From: Octopus vulgaris
Taxonomy: Eukaryota
Direction of reading: 5' to 3'
Assembly (NCBI GenBank): GCA_951406725.2
Contig: OX597820.1
Coordinates: forward strand, 13,454,001 to 13,518,000
Length of the DNA: 64,000 nt
Part shown: piece by piece, positions 1-59,466 of the stretch
How positions within the stretch are numbered: position 1 is the first letter of the stretch
How the letters are laid out: the number at the start of each line of letters is the position of its first letter
Notes under the pieces: generated by a model
The model's database searches: none
The model's input: only the letters and a program-made list of their open reading frames with translations
What the model was told of the DNA's origin: nothing
Translations under genes and position numbers: made by a program

Positions 1-2183
1 GTTCTCGAGTTGACCCTCCTCCGTCTGAATAATTAAATCAAGCGTCCTTCCTTTGCACCCTCCTTCTGCTTCTGTGGCATCTTCTCCTCGCTTCCAACAA
101 GGATAGCTGCCGCTACCCAAGCTACTTCTATATCCGATGGAATTGCTTCTACCCTCACCTTGGAAGTTTTTCTTGTTTTCACCGCCACATTCGCCAGCCT
201 CATCGCCTCCTCTACTGTCCTAAATTGGGCGACCATTGTCCCATATCTTTTTCCTTTGGTGATATATATTATATCTTTTGACTTCTCTCTTACCGCCTTT
301 TCTGTTTCCGCTTCCAACTGCTCAGCCTTTTTTTCCTTTTAAAGAGAACACCTTATAGGTGATCGTTTTCCTTTCCATCTTACATTTCGTTGGAGAGGTT
401 GAGGCCGACCTCACCACACACTTGTGGGCTCCCTCTTTCTCCTCCCTCCTCAGGTAGCCCGGCAAGGTCGCGATACGCCGGATGGCCTTTGGGTGTCTCT
501 TTTATTTGTCTGTACACTTTTTCCGCAATCCACGCACATCTTTCGTCTAGATCTTTGTTTTTGTCGTACAATCTTGCTGTGTGGTGCGGGACGACAATAT
601 CATCTGTATATTTGTCTCGAGTATCATACTCAATTAACACAAGTTCATCTCTTTCGTCTTTTTTTTTCTGGGCCAGTTAAGCGGGATTTTTTTTTTGGTG
701 GGGGTATCTGTGATGCGTCATCATTTTTATTTTTTGTAGGGGATGTGGACAGGGATGATGCATGAGTTATTTTACGAACAATCGTAAATTCCCTCTCTGA
801 TACCTCCATGGTATCGTCTGGGGTAGTTATATTTTGTTCAGTAGGCACTGCAATTTTTAAGGGGGTGGGAGGTTTTAATAATGTAGGGGCTTGTGTGTGC
901 AAGGGCTGGGTTTTTTGTCAGTTTGTTTTGAGGTTGGCACCGTAACAGCAGGAGTGGGACATTTTGTTTTTGTACGGGTAGGTGAGTTTGCAAGGGTAGG
1001 GATTTTTTTTATCTGAGGGGCCTGTTGTCTGCGGTTTCTTTTGATTGCCAGGACAGTCCACACGAATGTGGCCCTTTTTGCCGCAGGCGTAGCAGGTGGG
1101 TTTTCGGCCCTCGACCTGTACCTCGAGGGCCACATTCTCGCCCACGAGTACCCTCTCAGGAAGGACCTGCAGGTCCTCCTGTGTCCCTTGGATTATTACA
1201 TTAATGCTCCGCCCAAGCCAACTTTGAGGAGCATAGCATATTACCTGCAATATTTTGTACGCCCTCTTATATAACAGGGCGGCCACCACCTCTACTTCTG
1301 GCGGCACTTCTGTAATCTTGACCCAGGACGTCCTACGCCCCATATGTCGGCAGAAGTACTACCTCCTTAGTGTTTAGGGGACTCACGGAATGCCCGCGGG
1401 CCACCTCTTCCCCCGAGAAGCGGACCTCCACAGTGCCGTGTGCCCGTCCCCGGCGACGTACACTATGTCCCTCCAAATCGGCGACAGGCATTTTTGATAA
1501 TATTCTTTTCAAAGTGTTTGAACATTCTGCTTTGTGGGCAGAAGGTTTTAAACACTACGGTCCGCTTCTCTGTCTCCACGATACTAGAGGATGGTGATAT
1601 TTTAACATCACCACCCTCTTCTTTCATTCTTTTAAATAGCTAGACGAGCTGATCAACATTAATGTCAATGTTCTCGGTTGCCACTGCGGCAACCGCCGAA
1701 AATTTTTTATGTGTTGGCACATCTATCAACGTTGCTCTCAAGAGCACATTTTTCATGAATAATCTCTGTTGAACTTAATTATACACAACACAAAAATTAC
1801 AAATACAAATATTGGTTTCCCACAAAACTGGGAACCCTATAAAAAGTATTCCTCCCAAAGCAGTTCAAAAAGTAGTTCAAAAGCAGTTCAAAAATTAAGT
1901 CCAATTCCCACCCCCATTCGGGGGAGGGGCATAAAAATAGTCTAGCAAGACTATATACAGTCACGAAGATGTTATAAATTAAAAAAGGCCACAATGGCTA
2001 ACAGTTCAACAATAGCAAATTATCAAATTATTCCCCGGTAAAACCGGGAATCAAGACAGTTCAACAACAAATCTTCAGTAATAAAATCCAACAAGTAATC
2101 CAAATGCTACGAATAGTAACAGAGCAAAACTCTTACCGAGAAGAAAAACACGTCCAAACCGTAGTAAGGTAAGCAAAGCTACT
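1..2183 (-). mobile_element. Unit 1: composite ORF1-only element (family D ORF1 joined to family C ORF1), runs off the window
   Basis: Disrupted ORF1 from about 1756 (KRTVVFKTFCPQ..., CYACGKKGHIRVDC in ORF 918-1343), then a second ORF1-like segment (33-317, ITKGKRYGTMVAQFRT) homologous to ORFs 5674-6105 and 18819-19733. Confidence 0.75.
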
Positions 2184-2211
2184 CTTCAGTCAGTGAGGTA
2201 AGCAAGCTACT

Positions 2212-4364
2212 TTATTTGATAAAATTTATCATATAGACAGTACAAAGATTGTGTAGCTTTGCGGGCTGGACAAACATAATGAATGAAAATGAAATATAAT
2301 GAATGAGAGGCGAAACCCAACACCCGCCGATTGGATTTTTCTCAAATATTTTTTTTTTTTTTTAATCAATATGAGGTTTCAAACCTCTTACAAGAAGGAA
2401 GCACTAAAACCTCTTGCAAGCCACCTTATTTCATTCAACCTGCCACAAGAGCTGCACATAGATTTACAACAATTCTCCTTATCAGATCCCCCAAGCAATG
2501 TGACTTGCCGCCTGCAGACAACTCTGCAGCGACAAGTCGGGGCCTGCAAAGAGGAAAGCAAATTCTTCCTTGTCAAAGGTCGCTGTGACCTTTGACAAAA
2601 GGTTCTCCGTTACTACCTCCGCAGCCATCTGCGGAGGCCATATCGGACTACTTGGGCAGAACGAGTATACACGTTCTCGGTCATCCAAGCCGTCCAAAAA
2701 TTTATTCACCGTCCTTTCCTTGTGGTAAAGGAGGAGAAACCCCTCCTCTTCACACTGCTCCGTCAGTGACACTTCCCACTGACAGAGCCCTATCCGCAGG
2801 TGGCACACATCCCACCTGCGGCTCCATCGGCGGCCTAGGAGCATCTGCCAACCGCCTTCTGATCCTCTTTTTCCTCTTTCTTTTTGAGGCTGCGGGAGCA
2901 GGGGGCTGCGTCGACAGATGCGGGGGGTCGCTACCTTCCTCCGCCGCCTGTACATTCTTTGGTGAGCAACCATTGTTGCTCACCTTTTTCTTTTCGTGGA
3001 GGCAACTTCTTCCACGACTTCCGCCATCTCCCCCTCCAATAAGGGGGCGGCGGGCACCTCTTTCTCATGCTCCAGGGCCCCACCACGGCCCCCTGGAAGT
3101 TCCTTTTGATATGGCCAGGCTCCAGGCACAGATGACACTTGGGGGGGGGGTCGTCCCTCAAGTATCACCGGGTACCTGTGCACGGCCATTTTCAGGAAGT
3201 CTGGGAATTTCATCTCTCCCACGGCCACCGGGGTCCACAGGATCAAAGTTGCCTTTGACTCCTCCCAGGCGACCGCGGGAGTCATTTTTACACTCAGTAG
3301 CCTAGGCCCGCTATTCCCCAGGCCTCGCCGGATGGTCTCCTCGATCCATTCCGCCTCCGTGCCCGGGGGCATCCCGCAAACCCAGGCTCTTTTTATTTTC
3401 CTGCCACAATACGAGGGGAGGAACAATTTCCTCTCCCTCAAGGGGCTCGCTAGCAAATCTGCTAGCTTCCTCGTGGGTACCAAACAGCAACCACACCGTT
3501 GCAAATTTAGTCCCCCGAGAAATAAACTTTATAGTTGGCAGGTGGTCTGCCAACTCTTTTTCTATTGTGCTCCTGTCGAAGAGGGCGATGTCCCCATGCG
3601 ACCTAGAATAGGTTCGTAGGACCACCGTCCTCTTCTCAAGATCTTTAATCCACTCCAAAGCAGTGGCTTCATTTTTTTTTTGCCATGTGACAGAAAGTTC
3701 AGAGTTCAAATAAAGTTCGATAGTTTTGAAAAAAGTAAGGAAGGTACAGAAAGGAGGAGCACAACAGAAGGGAAGAAATCAACAGAAAATCACAAACAAA
3801 AAAACAAAAAGAGAAGTTAAATAAAGTTCAAAATAAAGTCAATAAACAGCAAAACACGGCAAAAATCTTCTGGCCTTACGGTACTCCGGCCTGAGTTAAA
3901 CCTGGAACGCCGCAACACAACCTCTACAAAAATTGGTCCAAAAGGTAAATCCAAAAGTGGCTTATTCTTTTCTTGCGAGATACTCCGACAAAGGAATCAA
4001 TTTTTCGGTCGAAAAGGTCTGGCCGTCCAATGGTAAAATAAATTCAATAAAACCAACCACAGCACTGGTCACCGCAACAGTAACTGTATTGGGTTCTGAG
4101 GATACGCCCCTCCACTGTTTTTTTTTTTCAATAAACACAAAAACAGCAGCCGACGAGAGCAGGTGAAATTGTCCCGGAGCTGGACACAACTTACTGAAAA
4201 AATAATTAGCACGCAATAAATTATGCCCAACAAACAAAATCACTCACCTCGACAACTGTTTTTGGTCTTTTTTTTCTGTAATTGGACGGAGCTAGCTATC
4301 TCACGTCCACTTTGGTTCAACAGGAAGCAACTGACTAACAGCGCATGTGCGTTAGCGAGCTACT
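2212..4364 (-). mobile_element. Unit 2: ORF1-only non-autonomous Tx1-type element, family B, frameshifted
   Basis: ORF pieces 3686->2482 (LEKRTVVLRTYS, ISRGTKFATVWLLF, RAWVCGMPPG, CHLCLEPGHIKRN). AATAAA 3' end at about 2212. No ORF2. Confidence 0.85.
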
Positions 4365-5068
4365 TTTATTCATTAAATTTGCCATAAAGGCAGTACATCG
4401 ATGTAGCTTTTGCGGGCTGGACGTAGACATTGATGGTATGAATGATGGTGATGGAACGAAGATATTGATGGGAGAAGACGAAAGCACCCGCCGACTTCCG
4501 CTTCTCTAAGACAATGTTTTTTCCAAAAAATTTTACAAAGTCACAAAATTTTACAAAGGTTAAGAGACAATGAACCTCTTTCTCAATATGATACAAAAAC
4601 ATTAAACAGGTTCCAGTTACCTGGCCGACCAGCGCTCTTGCTTCATTGAGGCAATCATTCTTTGTCAGGCCGTACCATACAGGTATAAATTGAAAGGAGT
4701 CCTCCGGGAAGGAATTAGCGATCCTGCATAGTTCGTTATCCAATAGGACCTCCGCAGCCAGCTGCGAAGGCCACTTAGGGTCCTCTGTGCAGGACCGAAG
4801 TCTTTCCCATTGGCCTCTCTTTCTCATTTTACCTATTTCATTTTCCAGCGTTCCTCCTTTGTAGAAGACCACATGACCGGAGCAAAGTGGAGTCTATTAC
4901 TCTCCAAAAAATAAATACAGAGCAATAAACTTCACTAAGCCCCCCAAAAAATTCAACAAATGCCTACCTGTAGTCGAGTCTCAAAATTCAATAATTCACG
5001 TCGAAAAACGCGACATCCGGCAGCAGCCAAAAAACACGTCCGTACACGTCGAAGGTTAGCAAGCTACT
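4365..5068 (-). mobile_element. Unit 3: about 0.7 kb internally deleted derivative (5' UTR fused to the family A ORF1 C-terminus and 3' UTR)
   Basis: 4875-5068 is nearly identical to 8365-8558. 4610-4872 encodes the family A C-terminal domain (RKRGQWERLRSCTEDPKWPSQLAAEV). Confidence 0.8.
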
Positions 5069-6469
5069 TTATTTTATCAGATTTGCCATAAAGGCAGTAC
5101 ACAGATGGGACACTACAACACATGTGGGGACATATAACAATTAAAAAATAAAATATGATATAATGAATGAACATGAAAATGCACATGAAGAACAAATTAA
5201 TATATGATAATATGAATATCTGAAAATGATATTATGAAGAGTCTGCTACTCACCCCACACTGAGTAACACAACTCGCTGTCTCTGGGTCCTGAGTTCTTT
5301 TTCTCTTTTCGTTCAATCCTGTCACTTAATGGTAACCTTCTCTCCGTCATGCATTCATAACCATTTTTTTTTTGCCTGGAGGGGGGGGTCTTCTAAATTT
5401 TGTGGTGTCTGTTCTTTTCTTGAGGGGAAATGGGGGGGGTCTGAGTGGTCTTGGGTGGGATGGGGTTGGACTGGGGTGCCAATTCATACTCAGTGTCTTT
5501 TCTTTTTTCTCTTTCTTCTTGTGCGCTCTGAAACTTTCCCTTCCTCCTTTTCATCGCTTCCTTCGTCTATTTTTTCTTTTTCCTCTTTTTTCTCTTCTGT
5601 CTCTGCAACCACATCCGCGGCCGTAGTCTTTCGTAGGGGGCAGTATGCTCTAATGTGGCCCTTTTGGCCACATTTAAAGCAACGTGGTACTCTGCCCTCT
5701 ACCCACACCCTCAGCACGATTTCCCCCCAGCGTCACAGTTTCTGCCAAGTTCTCAAGCTGTTCCTCCTCTGTCTGAATGATTAATTCGAGCGTCCTTCCT
5801 TTGCACCCTCCTTCTTCTGTTTCTGTGGCTTGGAGGACAACCACCTTCTCCTCGCTTCCAACAAGGACAGCTGCCGCTATCCAAGCCCCTTCTACGTCCG
5901 GCGGAATTGCTTCTACCCTCACTTTAGAAGTTTTTCTTCCAAGGTATTTGGGTAGAAGCACTACCTCCTCCGTTTTCACCACCACACTTGCCAGCCTCAT
6001 TGCCTCTTCAGCTGTCCTAAATTGGACAATCATTCTTTTTCCTTTTGTGATGTATGTGATTTCTTTTGACCTCTCTCTTAGCGCTCTTTCTGTATCCGCT
6101 TCCACCTGTTCAGCCCTTTTTCCTTATAGGTGATAGTCTTTCTTTCTATCTTCTCCATAATTCTTTTGGGGGGCGACAGTCTTACGTCCCCTCCCACCTT
6201 CTGTAGCATCTTGCCATGGTTTTTCAGTCCAGCCAAGTCCAGCTCCTTTCGTATCTTCTCCGTGACCTCTGCAAAACTCCTGGTCTTTTCAAGCATACCG
6301 GCCATTGCTATGACCGCCCTCACGAGCTCCTCCTCTGAAGACAACTCAGACCCGGTAAGGTCTGAGTACATTGTCTCACCGCAGCAACAACACCGACGTC
6401 CGACTCGCACACAAACGACAAACCAAATGCACTATGGGTAACCGGAAGCAAGCTGGTTAGCGAGCTACT
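5069..6469 (-). mobile_element. Unit 4: ORF1-only element, family C, frameshifted
   Basis: MYSDL start at 6371. Pieces 6078-6410, 5674-6105 and 5490-5717 (VEGRVPRCFKCGQKGHIRAYC) are homologous to unit 11. Confidence 0.85.
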
Positions 6470-8558
6470 TTATTTCATTAGAATTTGCCACGAGGTCAGT
6501 ACATAGAGTAGCTGCGGGCTGGACAAAAACATTGAGATGAGGATGATAATGATGAACAAAAATGGGAGGGGCACTGGCACCCGCCGACCAATAACCCCTC
6601 GAATACAAAGTTTCTTTACAAAAATTTTTTACAAAATATTTTACACCAAAAATTTTACAACAAAATTTTTACAGCAAAAATTTTCTTACAATTTTCCTTG
6701 TCAGGTCCCCCGAACTAATTGACCTTCCCCCTGCAGAAAACTCTGCATCGACAGGTCGGGGCCTGAAAACAGAAAAGCGAATTCTTTCTTGTCAAAGGTC
6801 GCTGCGACCTTTGACAAAGTTTTTTCCGTAACCACCTCCGCAGCCACCTGCGGAGGCCAATTCGGACAGCTTCTGTCGAACGAGTACATTCGTCCTAGTT
6901 CGCCCAAGCCGTCCAGAAATTAATTAACCTTCCCTCCCTCGCAATAAGGAGGACAATCGTTCCTTCTTCAGGGGAAGGTACTTCATGCTGCTCCATCAGT
7001 GGCACACATCCCACTGACAGAGCCCTCTCCGCAGGTGGCACACATCCCACCTGCGGCTCCGTCTGCGACCCATGAACATCAGCCGCCCGACCTCTATTTC
7101 TCTTTCTCCTCCTTTTTTGGGGGGAGACTGCTGGCTCAGGGGGCTCCGTCAGCAGACATGGGGGGTCGCTATCCCCCTCCACCACCTGAACATTCTTTGG
7201 TGGGCAACCATTGTTGCTCACCTGTCTTTTTCTTTTCGTGGAGGCAACTTCCAATACTTCCACCGTCTCCCCCTCCAATGAGAGGGCAGCGGGCACCTTT
7301 TCCCTTTCATGCTCCGGGGCACCGCCACGGCCCCCGGGACAGTTCCTCTTGATATGTCCAGGCTCCAGGCAACGGTGACACTTGGGGGGGGGGCGTCCCT
7401 CGAGTATCACCGGGTACCTGTGCCCGGCCATTCTCAGGAAGTCTGGGAATCTCATCTCTCCCACGGCCACCTGGGTCCACAGGATCAAAGTTGCCTTTGA
7501 CCCTTCCAAGGCGACCGCGGGAGTCATTTTTACAATCAGTAGCCTGGGCCCGCTGTCCCCCAGGCCTCGCCGGATGGTCTCCTCGATCCATCCCGCCTCA
7601 TTGCCCGGGGGAAGCCCGCAAACCCAGGCTCTTTTTATTTTCCTGCCACAATACGAGGGGAGGAACAATTTCCTCTCCCTCAAGGGGCTCGCTAGCAAAT
7701 CTGCTAGCTTCCTCGGGGGTACCAAACAGCAACCACACCGTTGCAAATTTAGTCCCCCGAGAATTAAACTTTATAGTTGGCAGATGTTCTGCCAATTCTT
7801 TTTCTATTGTGCTCCTGTCGAAGAGGGCGATAGCCCAACGCGACCTAGAATAGGTTCGTAGGACCACCGTCCTCTTCTCAAGATCTTTAATCCACTGCTT
7901 GGGTGGGACAACCTCCCACTCCAAAGCAGTGGCTTCATTTTTTTTGCCATGTGACAGAAAGTTCAAATAAAGTTCGATAGTTTTGAAAAAAGTAAGGAAG
8001 GTACAGAAAGAAGCACAACAGAAGGGAAGAAATCAACAGAAAATCACAATAAACAAAAAAAAACAAAAAGTTAAATAAAGTTCAAAATAAAGTCAATAAA
8101 CAGCAAAACACGGCAAAAATCTTCTGGCCTTACGGTACTCCCGGCCTAAGTTGAACTCAGGAACACCGCGACTGGAACAGCTTTCACCAAATTGGTATAA
8201 ATTGGTACCGAACCGCAGCACAATTAGTCCTTTCTACCTTGGTACTCCTTGGTAAATCCAGTGGGAGAACACAAAGACAATTTTTGCAGAGAGGCTACGC
8301 CTCCTCAAAAAGCACAATTCTCACTGCAAAGTGAGTCTTTACGCTCGTCCACAGGCAGGAAAAATGTCCGAGCAAAGTGGAGTCTATTACTCTCCAAAAA
8401 ATAAGTACAGAGCAATAAACTTCACTAAGCCCCTAAAAAAATTCAACAAATGCCTACCTGTAGTCGAGTCTCAAAATTCAATAATTCACGTCGAAAAACG
8501 CGACATCCGGCAGCAGCCAAAAAACACGTCCGAACACGTCGAAGGTTAGCGAGCTACT
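6470..8558 (-). mobile_element. Unit 5: ORF1-only element, family B
   Basis: ATG at 7950. ORFs 7598-7966, 6895-7746 (CHRCLEPGHIKRNC) and 6701-6907. Body closely similar to unit 2. Confidence 0.85.
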
Positions 8559-9869
8559 TTTATTCATCGAATTTGCCATAAAGACAGTTCACAGATGTAG
8601 CTTTTGCGGGCTGGACGTAGACATTAATGGTATGAATGATGGGGATGGAACGAAAATGGTGATGGGAGAAGACGAAAGCGCCCGCCGACTTCCGCTTCTC
8701 TAAGACAATGTTTTTTATTTTCAAAAATTTCAAAAAAATTTCAAAATTTTACAAATGTCACATGAGGCAATGAACCTCTTTCTCAATATGATACAAAAAC
8801 ATTCAACAGGTTCAAGTTACCTGGCCGGCCAGCGCTCTTGCTTCTTTGAAGCACTCACTCGCTTCCAGGCCGGACCACACAAGCATAAATGTACAGATCA
8901 CTTTCCCATAGGACCTCCGCAGCCGTCTGCTAAGGCCACTTAGGGTCCTCCGAGCAGGACCGAAGTCCCTCCCATTGGCCTCTCCCTTTCACCTTCCCTA
9001 TCTCGCTCTCAATGGTCCCTCCCTTGTGGAAGAGGACCACATAAGTGACCTCCGGCAGCACATCCGCCTGAGGAGGCTCGGGAGACGCCGTCCGCGTCTC
9101 ACAATCCGCCGGCGGCGTTCCGCTTCTTTTCTTCCTTTTCTTTTTTCCTTGGGCCGCGGGAGGCTGAGGTTCCGGTGTTGCACACAACGGGTCCTCTTTC
9201 TCTCTCGCAGCTTCCGGGTCTTTTGGTGGGTCACCATTGTTGCGCACTTTTCCTTTTCTCGTTGAGGAAGTTACTGTTTCCTCGTTCTGTTTCTCTCCCC
9301 CCATTGGGGGACCAGGGAGAGGTTCCAACATTAACTGCTCCAGGATCCTACTTTGGTCCCTGGGGTAGTTCTCCAGGCACAGGTGACACTTGGTGGGGGG
9401 GGGCGTCCCTCAAGCATCACCGGATACTTGGACCCGGCCATCCTCAAGAAGTCCGGAAAAACCAGACTTTTGGCTGATTGGGTCCACAGGGTCAACACAG
9501 CTTTCGACCCCTCCCAATCAGCCGCAGGCAGTACTTTTACATTCAGCAGCTTGGAACTGCTACCATCCAGACCCCGGCGGATAGAATCCTCTATCCACTC
9601 GGGCTCAACGCCGGGTGGTAAGCCGCAGATCCAGGCTCTCAATTGTTCTCCCTTGTAATTTGGGAGAAACAATATTTCTTTTCTCAATGAGCTGGCTTGG
9701 AAAATCGCAAGCTTCTTTTGGGGAGTCAAATAGCAACCAAACCGTTGCGTATTTCACTCCCCGTGCGATAAATTTAACGGCTGGCATGTAGTCCGCCAGC
9801 TCGTTCAGTATGGTGGCCTTCGGGAAGACGGCTATGGTGTCGAGCGACTTCGAGTAAGTCCTCAACACC
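8559..9869 (-). mobile_element. Unit 6: ORF1-only element, family A, 5'-truncated
   Basis: ORFs 9605-9868, 9331-9729 and 8930-9331. It begins abruptly at VLRTYSK against the 3' end of unit 7, with no junction motif. Confidence 0.8.
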
Positions 9870-12800
9870 TTTTTCTTTATTACCCACGAGGGGCGACATA
9901 GAGGGGAAACTACAAGACAGTGGGGACATAGAACATTATAAAAATAAAAGTATGCAAGATGAAATTTTGAAAATGATAATATGAAAGTGATGCTAACGGC
10001 TCCATTCCGCTAGCATCACTTACCTGTCCTTCGTAACCTATCATCATCTGTCATCTCCAATCAGAAGCCCTACATTCTCTATCATTCTCTTAGCTCTCTC
10101 TTCAAACTCCTTCACCGTCTCATCCGTAAATTTTACCTTAGTCACTTTCACACCTTCATTTAAACAATTCACCATAATTCCATCCGTCCGTTCCTCTGAC
10201 ACTACTGCATAACTACCATCTACCTTCTCATACCATGAATAATCACTTATGTCTATTGAGTCTTTTGTGTCCTCTTTTTTTCACAAAACAAAGAATATGG
10301 GGCCTGGGATCTTGGTTAATTTCTTGTGTGTCTGTATTTTTTTGTTTTCTTGTAGGCGGGGAGTGGGTGGAATCACTGTTTGCAGGGGAAGGATGGGACT
10401 CAGAGGGTGCGGGTGGTGTTGGGGTGGGTTGGGGTTCAGTACAGTTCATTTTTCTCCTCCTTCTTTTCCTTTTCTTCCTTGCTTCTTCCCATTCAATCTG
10501 GGCTTCCTCCTCCTCATTTTCTTCCTCTACTTGTTTCTGTTCTACTTCCTCCTCTTCCTGGTTCTTCACCACAGTTTCCTTTTGTGGGGGAGGGCAGTAA
10601 GCTCTTAGGTGGCCCCTCAGGCCACACTTGTAGCAACGTGGAGCTCTGCCCTCCACCCACACTCTCATAATAACATCGCCCATCTTATTTTCGGTTAGTC
10701 TTTCCAACGTATCTACCTTCGCTTGAACATTCATATCCAGTATTGCTCCCTTCCATCCTTCATCCTTTACGGTGGCATGCAAGATGTCCACCTCTTCTTC
10801 ACAATCTTTTATCACAGCTGCTGCTATCCATTCTGCTTCAATGTGGTGGAGTATTCCCTCCACCCGGATTCTCGTTGTCCTATTTAAATACGTTGGTAGC
10901 ATGAAAATTTTCTCCGTCTTTACAGCTTTCGCCGCCATTCTTCTCGCTACTCGTTCACTTTTGTATTGCACTACTACCGTGCCAAACTCGTTTCCTCTTG
11001 CAACAAATATTATATCTTCACCTGTCCTTTTTACCGCCTCCTCGATTACTTCCATTTTGATAATTTCGACATTTTTGCTATTGATTTCGTAGGTTCGGTA
11101 CTTTATAGTCCTTTTGTTGAACCACTCGCCACGCTTTGGTGGTGGTGTCAGTTCTACATCGCTTCCAACTTTCTCCATATACTCTTGAAAGCCTGGTAAT
11201 TTGACTAAATCTATGTCTTTCTCTTCCGTTTTCCTCGCTGCGCCCGCGTATGTCTTTCCAACTTTGACGTCCATTTTATTCACGGCGCTTATCAATTCCT
11301 CTTCGGCGGTTGATAGCTCCCACAGACTTTCGAACAAAGTACTTTCTGCCATCTCTCCCGTTAGGGAGGGGCGGTTCATTACTTCTTGTCTGTCTTGTTT
11401 ATGTAGGGACTTGTGCGTGCTGGGGCTGGGTTTTTCTGTGCTTTGTTTGGGGACTAGCACCTCAACAACGGGGGTGGGAGTTTTTGTGTTTGTGGGGATT
11501 GGTGTGTTTGCGGGGGTGGGTTTTTTTTTGTTATTTGAGGGGCCTGGTGTTTACAACAACTATTTTTTTTCTTCGGTCAGCTCGAATGTGGCCCTTTTTT
11601 CCGCATTGGTAACAGGTGGGCTTACGGCCTTCCACCTGTACCCTAAGGGCCACATTCTCCCCAACGAGTACTCTCTCTGGTAGAGCCTGAATGTCCTCCT
11701 GTTTGCCTTGTATTAAAACCGTTGTTTCGCCCTAACCATATCTGTGGGGCGGAACTTGTGGTCTGTAATATGTTAATCCGGTCCGTCCTGTTGAACAACA
11801 GGCCGGCCACCACTTCTTTCGGGTCTACTGTGGATGGGATTTCGTTAATCCTTACACGGGATGTTCGTCGCCCCCTGTGCGTTGGCAAAAGTACCACTTC
11901 CTTGGTCTTCAGGGGGCACACGTGGTGCCCGCGAGCCACCTTTTCCTCTGAGAATTGAAACAACGGATCCGTATGCCCGTCCCCTCGAAATATACATTAT
12001 ATCCCTCCATATCGGGGCCAGGCATTTTTCAATGGTTTCTTTCCCGAAGTGCTTAAACCTTTTGTCTTGTGGGCAGAAGGTTTTAAACACCACGGTCCTC
12101 TTTTCCGTTTCTAGCACGGTGGAGGAGGGCGATATCACAACATCACCTCCCTCCTCCTTCATTCTTTAAAATATCCCTGCAGCATGTCTGCAGAGATATC
12201 TATGTTTTCGGTTGCTACTTCTGCAACTGCGGAAAACTTTTTACAGCGTTGGCGCAATTGCCAACATCAACATTGATCTCTTCAAGAGTAGATTTTTCAT
12301 GTATTATTTCAACCGACATGGTTGAAAAGTAATTGGTTTCCCACAAAACTGGGAGACCTTTCGAAAAAAGAAATTTTCCTCTCACAGAGGACAAAAGTAA
12401 TTAATTTTTTAAATGCTCGCAGTCCCAGGTTCAAATCCCACCCCCGCTGGGGGGGGGGGGGGTGAGACGTAGCAACAAAGTCTACGACGATTTGAAATTA
12501 TTTTCCACCACAACGAAATCCCCAAAAAGGGAAACCTATATTTTTCCAAAACAGTTCAAATCTCGCCCGTGCTACGAGTGGATGTCACAATAGAGCCTAC
12601 AATGGCTAAAATTAAATTTTTCTACAATAACAATTTGCTATCCCAAAAACGGGAAGCCTATAATATTTTTTTTCCTCTTAATAAGGATAACAGTTCAATT
12701 GCCACCCCCGCCGGGGTGGGGCGCAACAATAAAGCCTACAACGGCTTTAACAAGTTCAACAATATTAATATTTCAATATTAATTTTTTTTTTCTTACAAG

Positions 12801-12924
12801 AATTACTTTTTCCCGTCACCGGGAAGAAAGTACAAAAGTTCACAAAAATATTCAACAATAAACAGCAGAAAAATTATCTGTGTGACTCACCGCAAAAAAA
12901 CACGTCGGATGTTAGGGAGCTACT
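9870..12924 (-). mobile_element. Unit 7: composite element with family D ORF1 followed by family E ORF1
   Basis: ORFs 11845-12162 and 11643-11963 are homologous to unit 1 ORF1, followed by ORF 10243-11460. 3' end is GCCCCTCGTGGGTAATAAAG. Confidence 0.75.
10243..11352 (-). CDS. Tx1-type ORF1 (gag-like RRM + CCHC zinc knuckle), family E, open frame
   Basis: MAESTLFES..., ARGNEFGTVVVQY, VWVEGRAPRCYKCGLRGHLRAYC, then an acidic/basic tail. Part of the 405-aa ORF 10243-11460. Confidence 0.7.
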   Translation of the reverse strand: MAESTLFESLWELSTAEEELISAVNKMDVKVGKTYAGAARKTEEKDIDLVKLPGFQEYMEKVGSDVELTPPPKRGEWFNKRTIKYRTYEINSKNVEIIKMEVIEEAVKRTGEDIIFVARGNEFGTVVVQYKSERVARRMAAKAVKTEKIFMLPTYLNRTTRIRVEGILHHIEAEWIAAAVIKDCEEEVDILHATVKDEGWKGAILDMNVQAKVDTLERLTENKMGDVIMRVWVEGRAPRCYKCGLRGHLRAYCPPPQKETVVKNQEEEEVEQKQVEEENEEEEAQIEWEEARKKRKRRRRKMNCTEPQPTPTPPAPSESHPSPANSDSTHSPPTRKQKNTDTQEINQDPRPHILCFVKKRGHKRLNRHK

Positions 12925-24440: not shown

Positions 24441-24696
24441 TATATTTCTTTATTACCCACAAGGGGCCAACTAAGAATGGGACAATACATCATGATTTGG
24501 GGTCATGAGATACAAATGATATTTACACAAAAATGAACTTTAAAAACATTTTTACACAAAATCGGAAAAATCGAATGATACACAATGTTTTTAACAACAG
24601 CACGACATAAAAGGAACACATGAAGTGGGAACACCAGGATTGCCGACCCCACGAGCCCTGTTTTTCCCACCGAAACTCGGCAGCCAACTTACATGT

Positions 24697-28080: not shown

Positions 28081-28087
28081 AGTTTGC

Positions 28088-34206: not shown

Positions 34207-34237
<31 letters not shown>

Positions 34238-34786
34238 CCACACTTCTTCGGCCAAAATATAATCCAGGCCAAATGCACTTGGTAAATAATCCTTGGTAAT
34301 CCGTGGACACACAATGACAATTTCAAATAATTTTTTCAGACGGACTAAGCCGCTTCAAAAATACAATTTCTTTTCGCTCGACACAGGCAGAAAAATTACA
34401 CCCGGAGCAAAGTGGAGCTCTATTACTTGCTAAAAAATATTAACTGCTAAAAAAAACATTCATGCAAATAATAAAACTTCACTTCGCTCGCAAAAATACA
34501 AAATTCCTACCTTTAGTCGAGACGAAAGTTCAATATTTCACGTTGAAACAACGCGACATCAATACAATTTTCTTTCCACTCGACACAGGCAGAAAAACTA
34601 TATCTGGAGCAGAGTGGAGCCTTATTATCTGCTAAAAAACATTAATGCAAGCAATAAAACTTCACTAAACTCCCAAAAATACAAAGTTCCTACCTTTAGT
34701 CGAGACGAAAGTTCAACAATTCACGTTGAAACAACGCGACATTTGCCGGAGCAAAAAACAACACATCTGTATGGTAAGAAGCTACT
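32562..34786 (-). mobile_element. Unit 16: ORF1-only element, family A
   Basis: MAKAKNFTVW at 34045. ORFs run to 32863. Duplicated 5' UTR monomer at about 34360-34750. Confidence 0.85.
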
Positions 34787-36513
34787 TTATTTCATTTAAT
34801 TTGCCACCAGGGCATCACACAGAGGTAGCAGTAGCTCCGGGCTGGACACAGACATTAATGGATTATGGTAATGATGGATGAAAATGGTGATGGGAGAAGT
34901 CAGAAGCGCCCGTCGACCTCTGCTTCTCTAATACAATGTTCTTTTTACAATGTTTTTAAATTTTACAAAATTCAAAATTTTCAGAAAATAACAGTGTTCA
35001 ATGAATACATTTAGTAAAATGTTCAAAAATGTTCAAAATGTTCAAATTGCATTTTTTCAGACGAGATGATAAACCTCCTCTTCAACATGTTTAAAAATGT
35101 TCAAAATGTTCAATAAGTGTTTAACAATTCTCCCCGTCAGGTCCCCGAAGCAAATTGTCTTGCCGCCTGCAGACAACTCTGCGACGACAAGTCTCTGCGA
35201 AGAGAAAGGTAAAGTGCCTTCTTTCAAAGGTCTCTGCGATCCTTGATAAGATAGCATCCGTTACCCTTTCCGCAGCTACCCACGGAGGCCATAACGGATT
35301 TCTTGAGCCGACCGCGCCCTTGCGCTCAAGGTCGCTCAAGCCATTCAAGAAATCTTCCACCTCCTCTCCCTTGTGGTAGAGGAGGAGAAGCATCTCCTCT
35401 TCACAGGAAGGGACCTCCAGTGGCTTACTTCCTACTGGCGGAGCCTTGTCCGCGGGTGGCACACATCCCACCCGCGGCTCCGTCGGCGACACAGAAACGT
35501 CAGACGTCCGACCTCTCCTTTTTCTCCTTCTTTTGGGGGAGACTGCTAACCCAGGGGACTCCGTCACCAGACACGGGGGATTGCTATCCTCCTCCGCCCC
35601 CTGAGCGTTCTTTGGTGGGCAACCATTGTTGCTCGCCAGCCTCTTTCTTTTCGTGGAGGCAACCTCCTCCACGACTTCCACCGTCTCCCCCTCCAATGAG
35701 GGGACGGCGGGCACCTTTTCCTTTTCATGTTCCGGGGCGGCACCACGGCCCCCGGGACACTTCTGCTTAATATGTCCAGGCTCCGAGCACCGGTGACACT
35801 TGGGGGCGCGTCCCTCAAGCATCACCGGGTACCTGGACCCGGCCATCTTCAGGAAGTCCGGAAAAACCAGACTCTTGGCCGACTGGTACCACAGAGTCAA
35901 AGTGGCCTTTGACCCTTCCCAGTTAGCCGCAGGCTGCATTTTAACGTTGAGGATCTTGGCGTCCCTGTCACCCAGCCCCCGGCGGATAGTCTTCTATCCA
36001 CTCGGGTTCAAAGCCGGGCGGCAGGCCACAGACCCACAAACGTAACAGTTTTTCCCCCCTGTAACTGGGGAGAAACAGAATTTCATTGCCCTCAATGGGC
36101 TGGCTTGCACATTTGCAAGCTTCTTCGGCGGAGTCAAATAGCAACCAGACCGTTGCGTACTTGACCCCCGTTGTATATGTTTAACGGCTGGCATATAATC
36201 TGCCAGCTCGTTCTCAATGGTATCTCTCGGAAAGACCATTATGGTGTCGAGTACCTTTGAAAATGTTCTCAGCACCACGGTTCTTTCCTCAAGATCATGT
36301 AAATATTTTTTGGGAGGTGCCAACTCCCACACAGTAAAATTCCTTGCCTTCGCCATAACGTAAAATACAATAGTTCAATAATAACTAAATTTAGCCACAG
36401 AAAGAATAAAAATGTAACAGAAGGGAAGAAAAAATAAAAATGGCAGTTCAAAAAAGTTTTTAACAAATAAATGATAGAAGAGAGAGTTCAAATTAGGCAA
36501 AGGAATTCAGTTT

Positions 36514-36555
<42 letters not shown>

Positions 36556-36935
36556 CCTCACTTCTTCGGCCAGAATGTAATCCGTGCCAAATGCATTGGT
36601 AAGACCCTTGGTAAACAATCCTTGGTAATCCCGTGGACACACAATGACGATTTCACAATAATCTCTTCAGTCGGACCAAGCCGCTTCAAAAATACAATTT
36701 CTTTCGCTCGACACAGGCAGAAAAATTACATTCGGAGAAAAGTGGAGTTTTATTACTTGCTTAAAATAATTAATGCTAAAAAACATTAATGCAAGCAATA
36801 AAACTTCACTTCGCTCACAAAAATACAAAATTCCTACCTTTAGTCGAGACGACAGTTCAATATTTCACGTTGAAACAACGAGACATCGGAGCAGCAAAAA
36901 ACCACGTCTAACTCAGACGAAGGTAAGAAGCTACT
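34787..36935 (-). mobile_element. Unit 17: chimeric ORF1-only element (family A N-half, family B C-half)
   Basis: MAKARNFTVW at 36356. ORF 35121-35939 switches to the family B tail after CHRCSEPGHIKQKC. Confidence 0.82.
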
Positions 36936-37711
36936 TTATTTTATATAATTTGCCACTAGGGCAGCACACAGAGTAGCTGCAGGCTGGACAAGGACATTAA
37001 TGGATGATGGTGGTGGTGGATGATGATGGTGGTGGGAGAAGTCAGAAAGCGCCCGCCGACTTTTGCTTCTCTAAAACAATGTTCTTTTTTTTTTTTTCAA
37101 TCATTTGCAAAATTTCAAAAATTACAAAAAATTCAAATAATTTTTCACAGAAATTTCAATTTTCAATTTACACTTTTTAATAGTCTCTTCAGAGGCAATA
37201 AACCTCTGTCACAATGTAACACAATTACAATTTTACGTTACCTGACCGATGAACTCTCTTGCTTTAATGACGCAATCGTCCATCGTCAGGCTTCCGCATA
37301 CTGGTATGACTTGCAAGAGATCCTCCGGGAAAGAATTCTCGATCCTGCACATATCATTTTCGAGTAGGACCTCCGCAGCCAGCTGCGAAGTCCACTTGGG
37401 ATACTCCATGCAGGACCGAAGTCCCTCCCATTCGTTTCTCTTCCTCCTCTTACGTATTTCGTTTTCTATAGTGATTTCTTTATTAAGATTATATAATCTT
37501 ATACATAGAATTACAAATACATAACAAACATGCAAAACAAATAATTAAGAGGTTCGCTATTTAAAAATTTTTTTTTTTTTTTATAACATTTGTATTAAAA
37601 ATTCGTTTTTTTTTAAATTGTCCTTTATATAACCAGTAGCATCTTTATCACAGTTCAAACCCCGGCAATTTACAAGCCCCGCAGCTTTTATTTCCTCTCC
37701 TCCCTCCATAG

Positions 37712-40700
37712 TTAAGCTGGGTTTCTAACACCCACCTTTCTTTCCACTTCCTTCCATCTTTTCTCATACACGCCCCGTGGTAAGCTCCTCTTCTCCAGCC
37801 CCATTTGCTCTTCAGATGATATCTGAAGTAAGTGAGCAAGCCGGGGCCGGAGACAAAGGTTCCTATCGCGGCTCCTTCCATTCTCGTTCTCCACATGCAT
37901 TCTTTTACTACTGCAACCGTACAGTGAAAACATGCCTCACCTTCCTTCGAGAGTCCAGTTGGCGGTATCATCTTAATCATAGTCTCAGCCGACAGCTGTA
38001 CTCGTCCTAGATGCGATAACACGTGTTCTGCGTAACTTATCAAGTCTGACAACTTCCGACAGTGTACAAAGGCGTGCTGAACGGTTTCATCGTCCAACTC
38101 GCACCTTGGACACGTCGGTGGCACTGGAATTCCGTGCCGCGATAACTTCTCGCGAACAGGTAGAGCGTTCCTATAACACTGCCAGGCCAGGGATCTTTGG
38201 AAATTATCCAAGTACCCCGTCCTGAAAGTCTTTTTAAACAGGTTGGTAAGCTGGTCTTCATCAAACCCCAGAGCCCCTCCTAGGACGTCGTCGTTTTTTT
38301 CCTCTACCAGCTTTCTATAAAATACCGAGGTGGTATTTCCGCAGCCGGCCTTGCCCGCCTTGTGGATCAGCGTGAGTGCCTGTCGGCACTCCCTTTGCCA
38401 CAAAGTCAGTTTCCATCTTTTGATGCGACCGGGTTTAAAATCCGTTAAGGAGGCCAGTCTCGGAAAAAAATTCCCTGCCAGCGGACTCCACACCTTATCA
38501 CCCTCCAGGTGGTGCCAGAGATGCTTCAGCCTCAACGCATGTCTGCGCATCATCAGCCAAGGCATTCCTAACCCACCCTTTAACGGTTCCTGGCAGCAAA
38601 CTGAGCGCCTCACAAGTGGCTTTCCTCCCTTCCACAAAAAGCGGAAGAGGATTCGCTCCAACTTGTTAAGCCATGAACCGGGGCAAGGGACAACGGTCAG
38701 GCGGTAAGTGATTACAGATGCAATGAACATCTGCACCACCTCCGCCTTTCCTTTCAAGGACAGAGACCTTCCGGACCAGGTCCGTACTATGGCCTCCACC
38801 TTGCTCGCCACCTCACTCCAGTTCCTCTCCGTTTGGGAGTCTGGCCCAAACCAGACTCCTAGCAACTTAACAGGGCCATCCGTCCAGTGTCCCACGACGC
38901 TGGACGATATCGACTTGTTCCTCCAGGTGCCGAGGCGCAAGCCAACCGACTTGTCCTTGTTAACCTTTGCTCCTGCCACCGCCTCGTATCCTCTGATAGC
39001 CTCTTCCACACAAGGTAGCTGGGCCTCATTGGACACGATGAGGGTGACGTCATCCGCGTAAGCAGTAACCGACCTCCCACCTCCGATCTCATCCGAGTTG
39101 CTTCCCAGCCTCTCCAACTTTCGCAGCAATGGCTCAAGAGCCAACACGTACAAAAGTGGTGACAAGGGGCACCCTTGACGAACTGAACATTCAATCGAAA
39201 ACGGTTCCGTTAGGTAACCGTTTATCTGGACGGTGGACTTGATGCCGCTATACATAGCGGAGATCCACCCGCGAAATTCAGGGCCCAGTCCAGCCGCTTC
39301 GAGGACCGTCGCCAGGTACTCATGGTCTACCCTATCGAAGGCTTTACTTTGGTCTAAATGGACCATTACCCCTCCCTTGCCGGTTAATTTACCCACCCTG
39401 TCTAAGGTGTAGCGTATAAGGTGAAGATTGTCCTGGATCGACCTGCCTGGAATTGCACATGTCTGTGCTCTCCCTACAAGTTTCTCCACGACAACCGTCA
39501 ACCTTTTTGCCAACACCTTGGCCAAAATCTTTAACTCTACATTAAGTAGAGTTATGGGCCTGTAGTTACTAATGTTGTCCCCCTTGCTCGGGTCTTTCTG
39601 GATTAGCGTCACCACTCCCCGGCTTACAGAGCTGGGAATTCTCCCATTCTGCTGCCAGCTCGTGTAGACGCCTGCCAAAATTCCCCCGAACAAGTCCGGC
39701 ATACTTTGGTAAAACTCGTAGGGCAGACCATCCAACCCCGGCGACTTCTCCCCGGCGCATCCGGGCAGTATCCCCTCTATCTCCGCGGGAGTGATCGCTC
39801 CTTCACAGCACTCCACCTCACGCCCCGAGAGCCGCGGTCCGCCGGCCAGGAAGTCCTTTAAGGTCCTTCCCCGCTCCGGCGCCACACCACCCCCGAACAC
39901 GCGGGCGAAATGCTGGTGAAGAAACTTTTGCATCTCCTCCTGTCCATAGATCTTTTGTCCCTGTTCGTCAGTTAAAGATTTGATTGAGGCTCTGTTGCCT
40001 CTCTGACTCTCCACACGACGGGCCCATCCGGCCACGTTAATACCTTCTCGTTTCCCAGCGCGTAGCTTAGCTCTGACTCTGCAACCTTCGTGTTTGGAGT
40101 TAAGGTGACGGTACAATACCGTCCTTGCCGCCAACACTCCGGATGCAGAGCCAGCTTCCATTGCCTCGTCTAGATTCTTAACTAAATCGCCCTCTAGACT
40201 AGCCCTATCTATCCTTAGCTGATTGCTAAATCTAACGGACTCTGAACGAATGGCTCTTTTGAGGGAGTGCCACCATCTATTGTTAATGATGGCGCCACAC
40301 AATGCCCCTCTGTACTAATACCTTAATCCGGGTACGGAAGTCTTCACAATTCAAAATAGCCTTGTTCAGCTTCCAGTACCCGGGTCCCTGTCTATGACAC
40401 TTGTCCAACTGCATCTCACACGTCACAAATTTGTGATCCGTGTAAGGCACAATGTGGAACTGTGGACAACTAAACGTGTCCTTATCTCTTTTTTTAATAA
40501 ATATCCTATCTAAATACGATCTGCGTGAGCCGTCGTTGTTACTCCACGTCCACTGTGGAACGCTCGGCTCATCCAGTCGGTAACGGTCTACTAGATCAAA
40601 GCTCTCTAGTAGACCCTTGAGGCTAGGGTTCCCCTTCCTATTGGTTGAGCCAACACTGTCGACCCGCGCTTCAAGGACAGTGTTAAAGTCCCCTACTAGG

Positions 40701-41100
40701 ATTACCGTTTTCGACGTCGCTAAAAAGGGCTCCAGGTTCCGAAAAAACCCGCCTGTCTACTCTCGTTCGGAGCGTAGACAGCTACCAACCTGAAGGACTG
40801 TTTACTTACGTGTGTCACATCCAGAACAACCAGCCTGCCTTCTGGGTCCAGAAAGACAGTACTTACCTGCAAGTCCAAGCTCTTCCTGATAAGGACTGCC
40901 ACGCCTCTGCCTCTTCCTCGGCTAGGAGAAATAAATTTCTCGAAGCCATTTAGAAGAGGCGAGAACGCTTGGGCCCCGTTCATCTTGGACTCGGTTGCAA
41001 TAGCTATGTCAACATTATGTGTTGTGAGGTCGTGCAGGAAGCAAATTTGCTTCCATTTCGACCCCATTCCACGTACATTTATACAACCCAACTTAGCCAT
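37712..41100 (-). pseudogene. Tx1-B ORF2 (EN + RT + CCHC), several frameshifts
   Basis: GCINVRG, IATESK, YRPITLLN, LDQSKAFDRV, VRQGCPLSPLL, YADD, CPRC..ETVQHAFVHC. Confidence 0.9.
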
Positions 41101-41128
41101 TGTAGGTGAGAGAGAAAAATAAATGTAC

Positions 41129-42562
41129 TCACGGTTGGGAAAGGGAGCATGACAGTTTAAGTCTGCCTGCTTCCCCTTCTTCCTCCCTTGTAGTTGCTGC
41201 TGCAGGGCTCTTGACCGGCGTTGCCACCGGGCTCTGGGTGGGTGTGGTTGCCGGGGTTATTACAAGTTTGCCCTCCATTACTTCTTTAGTCACGTCTCTG
41301 ATCAGTCGGTTCCTTCAAATGCTCTTGAAGAACTTCCTCCTTCCACTCGTCCTCCCCTACTTTCGCGAAGCGAGCGGTTGCTTTTACATCTGTAGCCCTA
41401 CTATACAACACAAATCTTGAGAATTTACAACACTTATAAACTCTTTCGTTTTTCTCATCGAAAGCAATTATCTTATTTTTTTTAACAACTTTTTTACGTC
41501 TTGTTTTATGGGGAGGGGCTTGGCAAACTGTTTCCCAATGAAAACAGTGCCATGGGGGTAGGGCTGGGGGATTTGCTTGGTGTGTGTGTCTGCTGTGCTT
41601 GCTGTTTTTTTCTTTGTTTGGGGAGGGGAGTCCTGGGTATTATCCTTTTTTCTTTTATGTGTGACTTGAGTGTAGTCCATCTGTTCGGTGCAGTCTGTTT
41701 TGGTTTCAATACTTGTCTTCGTCTTGTTATCTTTTCCTGTCTTCTCCCCTTCAGTGTTGGGAACACTTTGAGGAGGCGCTTCATCTGTTTTTTTTTTCTT
41801 TTTTATACAGTTCGATCGGACGTGACCCTTCTCTCCACACTTAAAACATCTGGGTCTACGTCCCTCTACTGAAACTCTCATTGATGTACCGTCTTCATTG
41901 AAAATTCTATCGGGCAGGTTTTCTAAAATTTTGTTTTCCGCCTGCACGAGGAGTTCCAGGGTCTGTCCCTTCCATCGTACCACCTCTTTCTTTCTCATCT
42001 GCAGTATCGAGATTTCCCTTTCAATATTGTGCAGGACCGCTGCTGCTACCCACATAATGTCGTACCCTCTGGGTATGTCCTCAACCAGCAGTTTTGCTGT
42101 ACGTTTCCCCATGTACGAGGGTAGCAGCATGATGTCGTCGTTTTTCAGTGTCAATGACGACACCTCTCTCGCTACCTCGGCTGTGTCAAAATGTGCCTCA
42201 ACCGTAGCACTACGCGCACCTCGGACAACATGACGAATTTTGTCCCACACCGGGGACAGGCAATTTTCGACCATTTCATTCCTTACGTCCATTATTTTCT
42301 TCTCTTTGAAGCTGTATACTTTATAAATGACTGTTTTCTCCTTAATCTCTTGTACCTTTGCCTGCGGCGGTACAAGCCTGATTTCGCCTCCTTCCACCTT
42401 CACCAGGTTCCTGAATTCGAACAATTGTTCGATTTTGAACTCCACATCCATCATGGCACCGCCCACCGCGGCCGAAAATGACTGTTTGGGTACTTCTGTT
42501 TCCTTTGTTTCACTTTTTCCCATCACGGGAAAATCATCCTTCGACGTCAAGTCGAATTCCAT
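41129..42562 (-). pseudogene. Tx1-B ORF1 (frameshifted near 41480)
   Basis: MEFDLTSK...VEGRRPRCFKCGEKGHVRSNC. The homolog 53178-54596 is open. Confidence 0.82.
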
Positions 42563-44282
42563 TTCAAAAAATTACCTCGAAGGTAATAACAATACAGGTA
42601 ATACAATACAAAATTTTCTGCCCCGTAGGGCGAAAATTACCGTTATACAACGGGCACTGTTCAAAACAATCAGCACAAACAACAACAACAATAGCACAAA
42701 TACGAACTCTCTTAGAGAAAGGCAGCTAATTCCGCAGAACGCAGATGAAAAATAACTAGAGAATAGAAAAGAGGTTTTTCGATAGTGCCTCCTTTATGGA
42801 AGAGGACTACATAAAATTTGTCCGGCATTACAATCGCCGGATGACACCTGGGAGACGCCCTCTGGGTGTTACAGTCCGCTGGCGGCGTCTCGTTCCTCTT
42901 TTTCTTTTTGCGCCGGGCCTCGGGAGGTTGAGGCTCCGGTGCCATACGCACCGGGTCCTCCTTTTCTTCCGCAGCCTCCGGTTCCTTTTGTGGGTCGCCA
43001 TTGCTTCCCACTCTTCTTTTTCTTTTGGCGGAGGGCTTTTCCCCCTCCTCGCTTTGTTTCTCTCCCTCCATTGGTGAGGCAGGGAGAGGCTCTAATATTA
43101 ACTTCTCCAGGATCCTACTCTGGTTCCTGGAGCAGTTTTTCTTAATATGGCCGGTCTCCGAGCACAGGTGACACTTGGGGGCGCGTCCCTCTAGCATCAC
43201 CGGATACTTGGAACCGGCCATCTTTAGGAAGTCCGGCAAAACAAGACTCTTGGCCGACTGGGTCCACAGAGTTAAAGTAGCCTTTCCTCCTTCCCAGTTA
43301 GCCGCAGGCTGCATTCTTACGTTTAGGATCTTGGCGCTACCACCACTCAGACCCCGGCGGATGGAATCTTCCACCCACTCGGGCTCAAAGCCGGGCGGCA
43401 GGCCGCAGACCCATAAACGTATCAATTTTTCCCCCTTATAGCTTGGGAGAAACAGAATCTCTTCGCCCTCAATGGGCTTACTTGCGAAATCGCAAGCTGC
43501 TTTAGGAGAGTCAAACAGCAACCAAATCGTTGCGTATTTGGCTCCCCGTTGAATGTGTTTAACGGCTGGCATATAGTCTGCCAGCTCGTTCATAATTGTG
43601 TCTTTCGGAAAGACCATTATGGTGTCGAGAGACTTCGAATGTCCTCAGCACCACTGTCTTTTCCTCAAGTTCGTTCAAATATTTTTTGGGAGGTGTTAAT
43701 TCCCACACTGTGAAATTCCTTGCCATAACTTAAGAAAAACAGTTCAAACTGTTACAAAATAAATTAGACACAGAAAGGAGAATGAAAAAGGCAACAGAAG
43801 GGAAGAAATAAAATTAAAATGGCAGTTCAAAGAAAGTTTTTTACAAATGAATGATAGGTAGAGAAAGAGAGTTCAAATTCAACAAAGGAATTTTTTCACT
43901 TTTTCGGCCAAAAATTGTACTCCAGGCCAAGTATATGGTTGGTACAACACCTTGGTAAATGATCCTTGGTAAATCCGTAGATAACACAACGATAATTTCA
44001 AAAATATTTTTTGTAGACGGACTACGCCGCCTCAAAAACACAATTTTCTTCACACCCGACAACAGGCAGAAAAATTATATCCGGAGCAAAATGGAGCCTT
44101 ATCTGCTAAAAATATTTAATGCTAAAATACATTAATGCAAGTAATAAAGCTTCACTTCGCTCGCAAAAATACAAAACTCCTACCTGCAGTCGAGTCGAAA
44201 GTTCAACAATTCACGTTGAAACAACGTGGCAACCGGAGCAGCAAAAAAACACGTCTAACTCAGACGAAGGTAAGAAGCTACT

Positions 44283-44303
44283 TAGCACACAGCCACTCCT
44301 GCG

Positions 44304-44305
<2 letters not shown>
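44283..44305 (-). mobile_element. 5' head of a tRNA-derived SINE (Pol III A-box region), interrupted by the retrotransposon array
   Basis: Minus strand reads GGCGCAGGAGTGGCTGTGTGCTA directly followed by AGTAGCTTCTTACC. TGGCTGTGTG is A-box-like. From memory it matches the start of an abundant octopus SINE (GGCGCAGGAGTGGCTGTGTGGTAAGTAGCTTGCTTACCAACC...); not database-verified. Confidence 0.75.
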
Positions 44306-59465: not shown

Positions 59466-59466
59466 A

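Follow-up and report, generated by a model that had tools for sequence, protein, structure and literature searches.

An age-graded stack of L1/Tx1-type retroelements in the head of a short interspersed element of Octopus vulgaris

Introduction

Tandem arrays of retrotransposons lacking long terminal repeats (non-LTR elements) are well known from R1 of Drosophila ribosomal DNA (rDNA), where neighbouring copies have a single 14-bp target duplication between them. This layout has been attributed to new insertions that enter the duplication lying 5' of a resident R1, and some R1 RNAs include a stretch of target able to anneal at the 5' junction (Stage and Eickbush 2009, PMC2718515). Here we describe a stretch of 64,000 nucleotides of Octopus vulgaris (contig OX597820.1, positions 13,454,001 to 13,518,000; the window in what follows), in which 17 L1/Tx1-type non-LTR units stand head to tail on the minus strand in the head of an abundant short interspersed element (SINE). 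The best explanation, to which we assign a probability of about 75%, is an age-graded stack grown by repeated SINE-proximal insertion, whose junction motifs, or tags, were set both by local target duplication and by sequence carried on the RNA.

Other described systems provide parts of this picture. Junction variants of R2 can become part of the RNA template and so be propagated; R2 RNA starts in upstream 28S sequence and the 5' end is made by a ribozyme like that of hepatitis delta virus (Eickbush et al. 2013, PMC3774820). Tx1-Mar and SINEU of crocodilians, as well as Tx1 within Tx1D of Xenopus, target another repeat, their tandem copies sandwich the target duplication and some copies have a 5' extension of target-repeat sequence (Kojima 2015, PMC4494074); there the target is a DNA transposon and SINE partners take part, and the portion of that paper drawn on here describes tandem pairs, not long age-ordered stacks. 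Tandem transposable elements produced by double insertion, head to tail and with the duplication in the junction, have also been reported (McGurk and Barbash 2018, PMC5932611), those arrays being mostly dimers with later unequal exchange, while the Drosophila telomeric arrays grow at the chromosome end and not internally. L1-Tx1 families are listed in PMC13282606, in the consulted part of which neither 'target' nor 'nested' finds a match.

R1 has 28S rDNA as its target, belongs to one family and averages no more than two to three copies per unit (PMC2718515), whereas the octopus locus has a SINE head, 17 units of several families, mostly restricted to the first open reading frame (ORF1-only), and a measured age gradient. 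From that gradient, new copies likely entered the resident 5' duplication as they do in R1. The array works like an R1 tandem array without being a member, the target not being 28S rDNA, and no ribosomal RNA family was matched in the window. As in R2, donor junction variants are found at new 5' junctions; the difference is that carried and locally copied tags compete within one stack. A scan of the window for ribozyme families, pseudoknots not being searched for, gave none at E values up to 1, and the folding of the head plus the start of the SINE-proximal unit is not above that of shuffles (z -0.83). What is new is the measured gradient together with the probable two-way origin of the tag; the ingredients are already described for R1 and R2, and with such precedents the locus is a good natural experiment and not a system of a new kind. 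The literature searched, to which Repbase, most subscription papers and supplements did not belong, yielded no account of an age-ordered Tx1 stack in a SINE.

Arrays of clustered regularly interspaced short palindromic repeats (CRISPR) grow at one end, duplicate a short repeat with each addition and keep time order. A first interpretation made from the letters of the window, the sequence-only reading, had likened the locus to them. The near-identical repeats, short spacers and cas genes of a CRISPR array are not what is found here, and the likeness is an analogy only: there is no Cas integrase, the units are selfish and of kilobase size, the repeat can be overwritten by the incoming unit and no sign of guide processing or of host benefit was seen.

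Array anatomy and junction motifs

The array begins 23 nt into one SINE copy, and its junction motif is part of the SINE head, as intact SINE copies nearby show. Units are named from U01 at the SINE end to U17 at the far (left) end. They are retroelements of 0.7-7 kb, mostly ORF1-only, and most measure 1.4-2.5 kb with a zinc-knuckle ORF1 and without ORF2. Three of them (U01, U05 and U12) contain foreign sequence of long interspersed elements (LINEs) with a different tail. The 32 frames scanned in the window gave retroelement-type families only, and tRNA and Rfam scans of the window returned nothing relevant. On the element strand, no SINE 3' half was found within 39 kb left of the window. Genome-wide (2.8 Gb), one pattern returned 898 junctions of element tail plus motif, and the insertion position relative to SINE head and tail is identical across the loci fetched. 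Other assembled arrays have 2-8 units each; 17 is the longest in this sample, which is not exhaustive.

All 17 junction motifs listed in the sequence-only reading were found on the minus strand, with the variants it had claimed. We label them S for the SINE-type motif (2211); C for a C at motif position 8 (4364, 5068, 6469, 8558, 12924, 14692, 16329, 18369 and 19842, where 5068 has a T at position 8 and 12924 has one further change); D for a variant one base shorter (21964, 34786, 36935 and 44282); and H for the variant at 24440, 30129 and 32561. The features are as follows; percentages are median divergences from the nearest dispersed copy, as defined in the next section.

44283..44305, minus strand: 5' head of the target SINE, 23 nt, in which a rare base variant stands 3 nt ahead of the insertion point
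36936..44282, minus strand: U01, SINE-proximal, family A, motif D; 1.0%
37463..42787 (ends approximate), minus strand: foreign full-length LINE nested in U01, with ORF1 and with endonuclease, reverse transcriptase and zf-RVT
34787..36935, minus strand: U02, ORF1-only, motif D; 0.8%
32562..34786, minus strand: U03, ORF1-only, motif D; 1.0%; D is carried, a near copy (L225) showing D at a SINE head
30130..32561, minus strand: U04, ORF1-only, motif H; 2.0%
24441..30129, minus strand: U05, motif H; about 570 bp of U04-type 5' untranslated region (UTR; 2.5%) fused to a foreign full-length LINE
about 24441-29558, minus strand: the foreign full-length LINE of U05, whose tail abuts the next motif
21965..24440, minus strand: U06, ORF1-only mosaic of a U04-type 5' part and a U07-type 3' part, motif H; 2.0%
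19843..21964, minus strand: U07, ORF1-only, motif D, of a D-carrying subfamily with many dispersed copies; 1.8%
18370..19842, minus strand: U08, ORF1-only, family B, motif C; 2.5%
16330..18369, minus strand: U09, family A, motif C; 3.8%
14693..16329, minus strand: U10, family A, motif C; 3.5%
12925..14692, minus strand: U11, family A, motif C; 4.6%
8559..12924, minus strand: U12, a composite, probably the remains of two units, of a 1.5-kb U17-related 5' part (2.0%), a piece of foreign ORF1 (about 9880-11400) and, at the 3' side, family-A sequence
6470..8558, minus strand: U13, family A, motif C; 5.1%
5069..6469, minus strand: U14, related to U08, with the full local motif C and then a second partial motif copy; 3.2%
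4365..5068, minus strand: U15, internally deleted family A, T at motif position 8; 9.9% (3 tiles only)
2212..4364, minus strand: U16, the most distal motif-C unit; 4.6%
357..2211, minus strand: U17, motif S, 5' part of an autonomous 5.4-kb family, 84% to L119, with the 3' part lost; 5.6%
2183-2168, minus strand: second motif copy within the 5' end of U17

The motifs lie in blocks: 8 of the 16 adjacent junction pairs are identical over 13 nt, a number reached by 420 of 100000 shuffles. As had been noticed from the letters, motif C precedes unrelated 5' ends, and the family-A 5' UTRs drift gradually along the array (Mantel rho 0.45, 52/10000 permutations, 12 units).

The first 7 nt of the target motif recur as their reverse complement in the 3' tails of the elements (last 40-51 nt), exactly in 8 of 16 tails and with one mismatch in 4 more; the units concerned are U01-U04, U06, U09-U13, U15 and U16. 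In a read-through RNA this complement would pair with the next motif, and the folding of 3' tail plus next motif is not above shuffles (z from -0.2 to -1.2). Head end and motif together form a near-palindrome (window 44265-44288, and other SINE heads), which in variant D made the opposite strand register as a false junction; the target may be a hairpin-prone site.

Age gradient along the array

Divergence was measured in 200-bp tiles of each unit as substitutions against the nearest copy at another place, nested inserts being excluded, and summarised as the median. With 177 other places, the medians increase with distance from the SINE, from about 1% to 5-10% at the far end (Spearman 0.87, p 7e-6, n=17); the coefficient was 0.90 before extra loci were added, and it is 0.86 for tiles of the first 1.5 kb against 192 other places. 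Targeted genome searches were made for distal units and none for U01 or U02, so that search bias acts against the gradient. The polarity of this array is thus supported, in agreement with the earlier proposal that growth is SINE-proximal and that the oldest units are on the left.

In noise-free simulations, a coefficient of 0.85 was reached in 0/4000 runs of random-slot insertion, and in 6%, 31% and 80% of runs with 50%, 70% and 90% head use, respectively. The head bias is therefore strong, though not necessarily strict. A looser account, in which insertion is head-biased but unconfined, the units U12 and U14 and the foreign LINE of U05 entered internally and the record is only roughly chronological, is to be seen as a milder form of the explanation preferred here and not its opposite. 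It draws on the local dips of the gradient, on the foreign tail of U05 that ends beside an internal motif, on a younger-looking unit downstream in some pairs elsewhere (L299, L296, L292) and on simulations that do not separate 70% from 100% head use. Since no unit is under 2% among the nine distal ones and the dips lie within the noise of the age proxy, we judge it improbable.

The units could also have multiplied by unequal crossing-over or gene conversion among residents, which would produce blocks of similar motifs and 5' UTRs without time order. Some sequence does point that way: the units are mosaic, the 5' parts of U04, U05 and U06 are alike at 1-5%, U06 and U07 have 3' tiles in common and the first tiles of U09/U10 and U13/U15 are alike at 2-3%. 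In a satellite made by unequal exchange the units would be closest to their array neighbours, but only 19 of 144 tiles, most in U04-U07, are closer to a neighbour than to a dispersed copy; the remaining 125 are no closer or have no array match. In the elements U01-U16, the 5' UTR, the ORF1 halves and the tail behave as exchangeable modules, and some mosaic forms are also dispersed (L152, L225); in per-module trees U01, U08 and U11 group with dispersed copies, and an age gradient is not predicted by exchange. Local exchange occurs but is minor, and as the origin of the whole array we hold it to be very unlikely.

Origin of the junction motifs

The sequence-only reading had attributed the motif variants to target mutations copied into later duplications, with motifs carried from a donor locus as the alternative. 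Local copying is supported for block C, and the alternative holds for the SINE-proximal blocks D and H. A C at position 8 is found at 8 of the 9 junctions of its block vs 6 of 22 dispersed relatives (p 0.004), or 6 of 27 if five U12 relatives with T at that position are added; the contrast is conservative, since two of the six dispersed C relatives had been fetched for having C. Genome-wide, 7 of the 13 element-tail junctions with C are in this window. Dispersed copies of the U08 and U16 start classes have it in 0/5 cases each, and relatives of U13, U14 and U16 in 0/7, while it is present among relatives of U09-U12.

D, in contrast, travels with its subfamily. It accompanies 56 of 74 genome matches to the U07-type start, 4 of which appear unrelated, and mostly lies directly behind a SINE head. 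Single insertions of the U07 class have a D-type 5' side and a non-D 3' side in 18 of 21 cases, and in the U04 class all five show H on the 5' side with the SINE-type motif on the 3' side. In the tree, U04-U06 fall into a single clade together with those H bearers that have U04-type starts. D and H are thus the normal 5' junctions of dispersed subfamily copies, and their interpretation as local target mutations is not supported. The motifs at the two sides match over 13 nt or more in 12 of 52 single insertions and share exactly 8 nt, the modal prefix, in 23, in a sample where the search design favoured carriers of the U07 and U04 types; the subfamily version frequently stands in place of the 5' copy. 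A candidate assignment of H as locus-specific, from 3 of 4 pattern matches falling here, was rejected, the pattern being blind to SINE-head junctions and H being found at dispersed heads.

That every variant arose at this locus and was copied into later duplications would suit block C, which is locus-enriched and precedes unrelated starts. With D and H at dispersed 5' junctions whose 3' junctions are SINE-type, and with an order of D, H and D that needs back-mutation, such a purely local history appears extremely unlikely; even if all dispersed carriers came from this locus, the motif would still travel on RNA.

Neither is the motif strictly determined by subfamily: the U01/U02-type start is found with 7 different motifs in 16 places, so that subfamily does not fix the tag. 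This also bears on pure carriage, according to which subfamily 5' ends bring their own motif, the blocks mirror the active subfamilies and no local copying takes place. Carriage explains D and H, and C itself is sometimes carried, since the SINE heads at L213, L244, L097 and L131 have C while the next downstream junction does not; all families of block C could moreover have had C-bearing donors beyond the best-scored candidates of our searches. Against it, five or more unrelated starts here have C while most of their relatives do not, and private variants are common to neighbouring junctions at five other loci (L124, L287, L294, L297 and L300). We therefore give pure carriage little credence. 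Tag inheritance is likely dual, by local duplication and by donor carry-over.

Autonomous partner and proposed mechanism

The autonomous 5.4-kb family, represented within the array only by the 5' fragment U17, sits elsewhere between the same motifs. Its copy at L115 has a 1081-aa frame with Exo_endo_phos, RVT_1 and zf-RVT, and the best solved-structure match of this ORF2 frame is human L1 ORF2p (E 7e-67). Matches to zf-CCHC were found in ORF1 of U01, U02, U07, U08, U13 and L115, several of them just below the curated cut-off. We provisionally take the elements to be of Tx1 type, a label resting on architecture and target specificity. Judging from its domains and shared junctions, the autonomous family is likely the helper of the ORF1-only units, and autonomous copies are often seen with passengers directly upstream. 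At its start the family has an extension of 28 nt that closes with a motif-like copy (window 2168-2211; L099, L101, L109, L115, L119, L140 and L141), probably an old junction fixed into the element.

The steps proposed follow from the junctions combined with what is established on target-primed reverse transcription. The endonuclease of the autonomous family would nick the bottom strand between SINE head and motif and would prefer a SINE head upstream, so that insertions would return to the proximal junction and mostly spare the internal ones; as these have no SINE head upstream, growth would be one-ended. ORF1-only partners would be mobilised in trans through their similar 3' tail. The RNA is expected to begin in or before the motif, with the end of the complementary DNA annealing to the duplicated target, and the local motif would give way to the donor version beyond a switch point that varies but most often falls near position 8. 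A switch at that place suggests annealing by a target-derived stretch of the RNA, for which R1 and R2 offer described precedents. Since the downstream motif would stay with the older unit, each unit would retain the tag it received.

A carrier may then reset the tag and open a new block, and a block would continue as long as later arrivals copy the local tag or bring an identical one. From the far end, the predicted sequence starts with S at U17 and continues with C from U16 through unrelated arrivals to U08; U07 would reset the tag to D, U06 to H and U03 to D. The T in the U15 motif may reflect CpG decay or carriage. U14, with the full local motif plus a second partial copy, was counted for local copying. 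U05 could stem from a chimeric RNA inserted at the target or from an internal insertion with deletion: the tail of its foreign LINE stops a few bases short of the internal motif and the 5' end is fused to the U04-type UTR, and among 40 scored candidates no dispersed copy crosses the breakpoint.

Read in this way, the stack is likely a dated log of past jumps. A one-ended stack orders subfamily activity without a molecular clock and shows the exchange of 5' UTR and ORF1 modules over time, and its natural tag variants map second-strand priming, which is poorly understood for L1-type elements.

Other arrays and points against the proposed history

The first sign test on other arrays gave 20 vs 15 with 15 ties and included some false junctions, which were later cleaned. 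Among adjacent pairs elsewhere (63 scorable, 13 unscorable), the upstream unit is younger in 27 and older in 15 at a margin of 0.3 points (p 0.09), and younger in 12 and older in 1 at a margin of 2 points; a Wilcoxon test over the pairs gives p 0.04. Other arrays thus lean in the direction seen here.

Several points weigh against the age-graded stack as reconstructed here. The 2-point margin was picked on the first pair set, a hold-out of 22 new pairs gave 5 vs 1 (p 0.22) and one of the 12 supporting pairs is a segmental twin, so that polarity is only weakly replicated outside this array. Order concordance with other arrays, by nearest-unit assignment at three thresholds, gave 2 vs 4, 3 vs 5 and 10 vs 10, with assignments that are poor because the units are mosaic. 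Within the array, the gradient is not strictly monotonic (U12 2.0%, U14 3.2%, U07 1.8%), the correlation within the last nine units taken by themselves is rho 0.57 (p 0.11) and, as seen above, half of the insertions at the head still reach 0.85 in 6% of noise-free runs. The nearest-copy distance itself varies with family size and with the best 39-40 candidates scored per search. U04 and U05 have 343 bp in common at 100%, and part of block H may hence be local duplication. The enrichment of the single-insertion sample noted above belongs here as well, and neither RNA 5' end nor nick site was observed.

Some other loci present particular arrangements. At L115+L313 (C1:223.69-223.71 Mb), a very recent stack consists of seven near-identical young ORF1-only units with one autonomous copy downstream of them. 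Filled sites recur at about 12.5 kb in C23:13.056-13.081 Mb, and L134/L135 (C13:23.05 and 23.08 Mb) are an inverted near-identical pair; both are segmental duplicates that mimic young insertions.

A possible source locus and further observations

It is possible, and we put it forward tentatively from sequence comparison, that the stack is also a source locus, whose head unit would be transcribed from the SINE head and would export the current tag, sometimes with the head variant, to daughters. The rare head base of the window was found in 1 of 67 empty SINEs and in 2 of 98 filled heads elsewhere, both with H, while H is found at 4 of the other 96 filled heads (association p 0.003). The pattern suggests a former donor role for the locus, with carried sequence able to extend past the nick on its upstream side. 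The distribution of C among dispersed relatives, absent for U13, U14 and U16 but present for U09-U12, is a further hint. The start at L101, one of the two rare-base heads, was not found behind H here, so another allele or donor would be needed, and trees did not resolve a donor locus. If true, the locus would register families in their order of arrival and give the copies it sends out an epoch-specific barcode, and tag export would make master copies traceable genome-wide.

Part of the foreign piece in U12 (10646-11399) is covered by one long low-depth contig in each of four sequencing runs, with three organism labels and 3-6 differences; among the matches listed between contigs of these runs and window positions 2100-22050 there was no junction-spanning piece. 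Finally, further L1/Tx1-type elements with a different tail, on the strand of the array, are packed in the window at 44500-64000 and in the 20 kb left of 2211, and the skew between G and C is negative in 63 of the 64 kb bins of the window. The flanking same-strand elements may represent another targeted stack or, alternatively, a one-strand cluster like those that give rise to PIWI-interacting RNAs (piRNAs).

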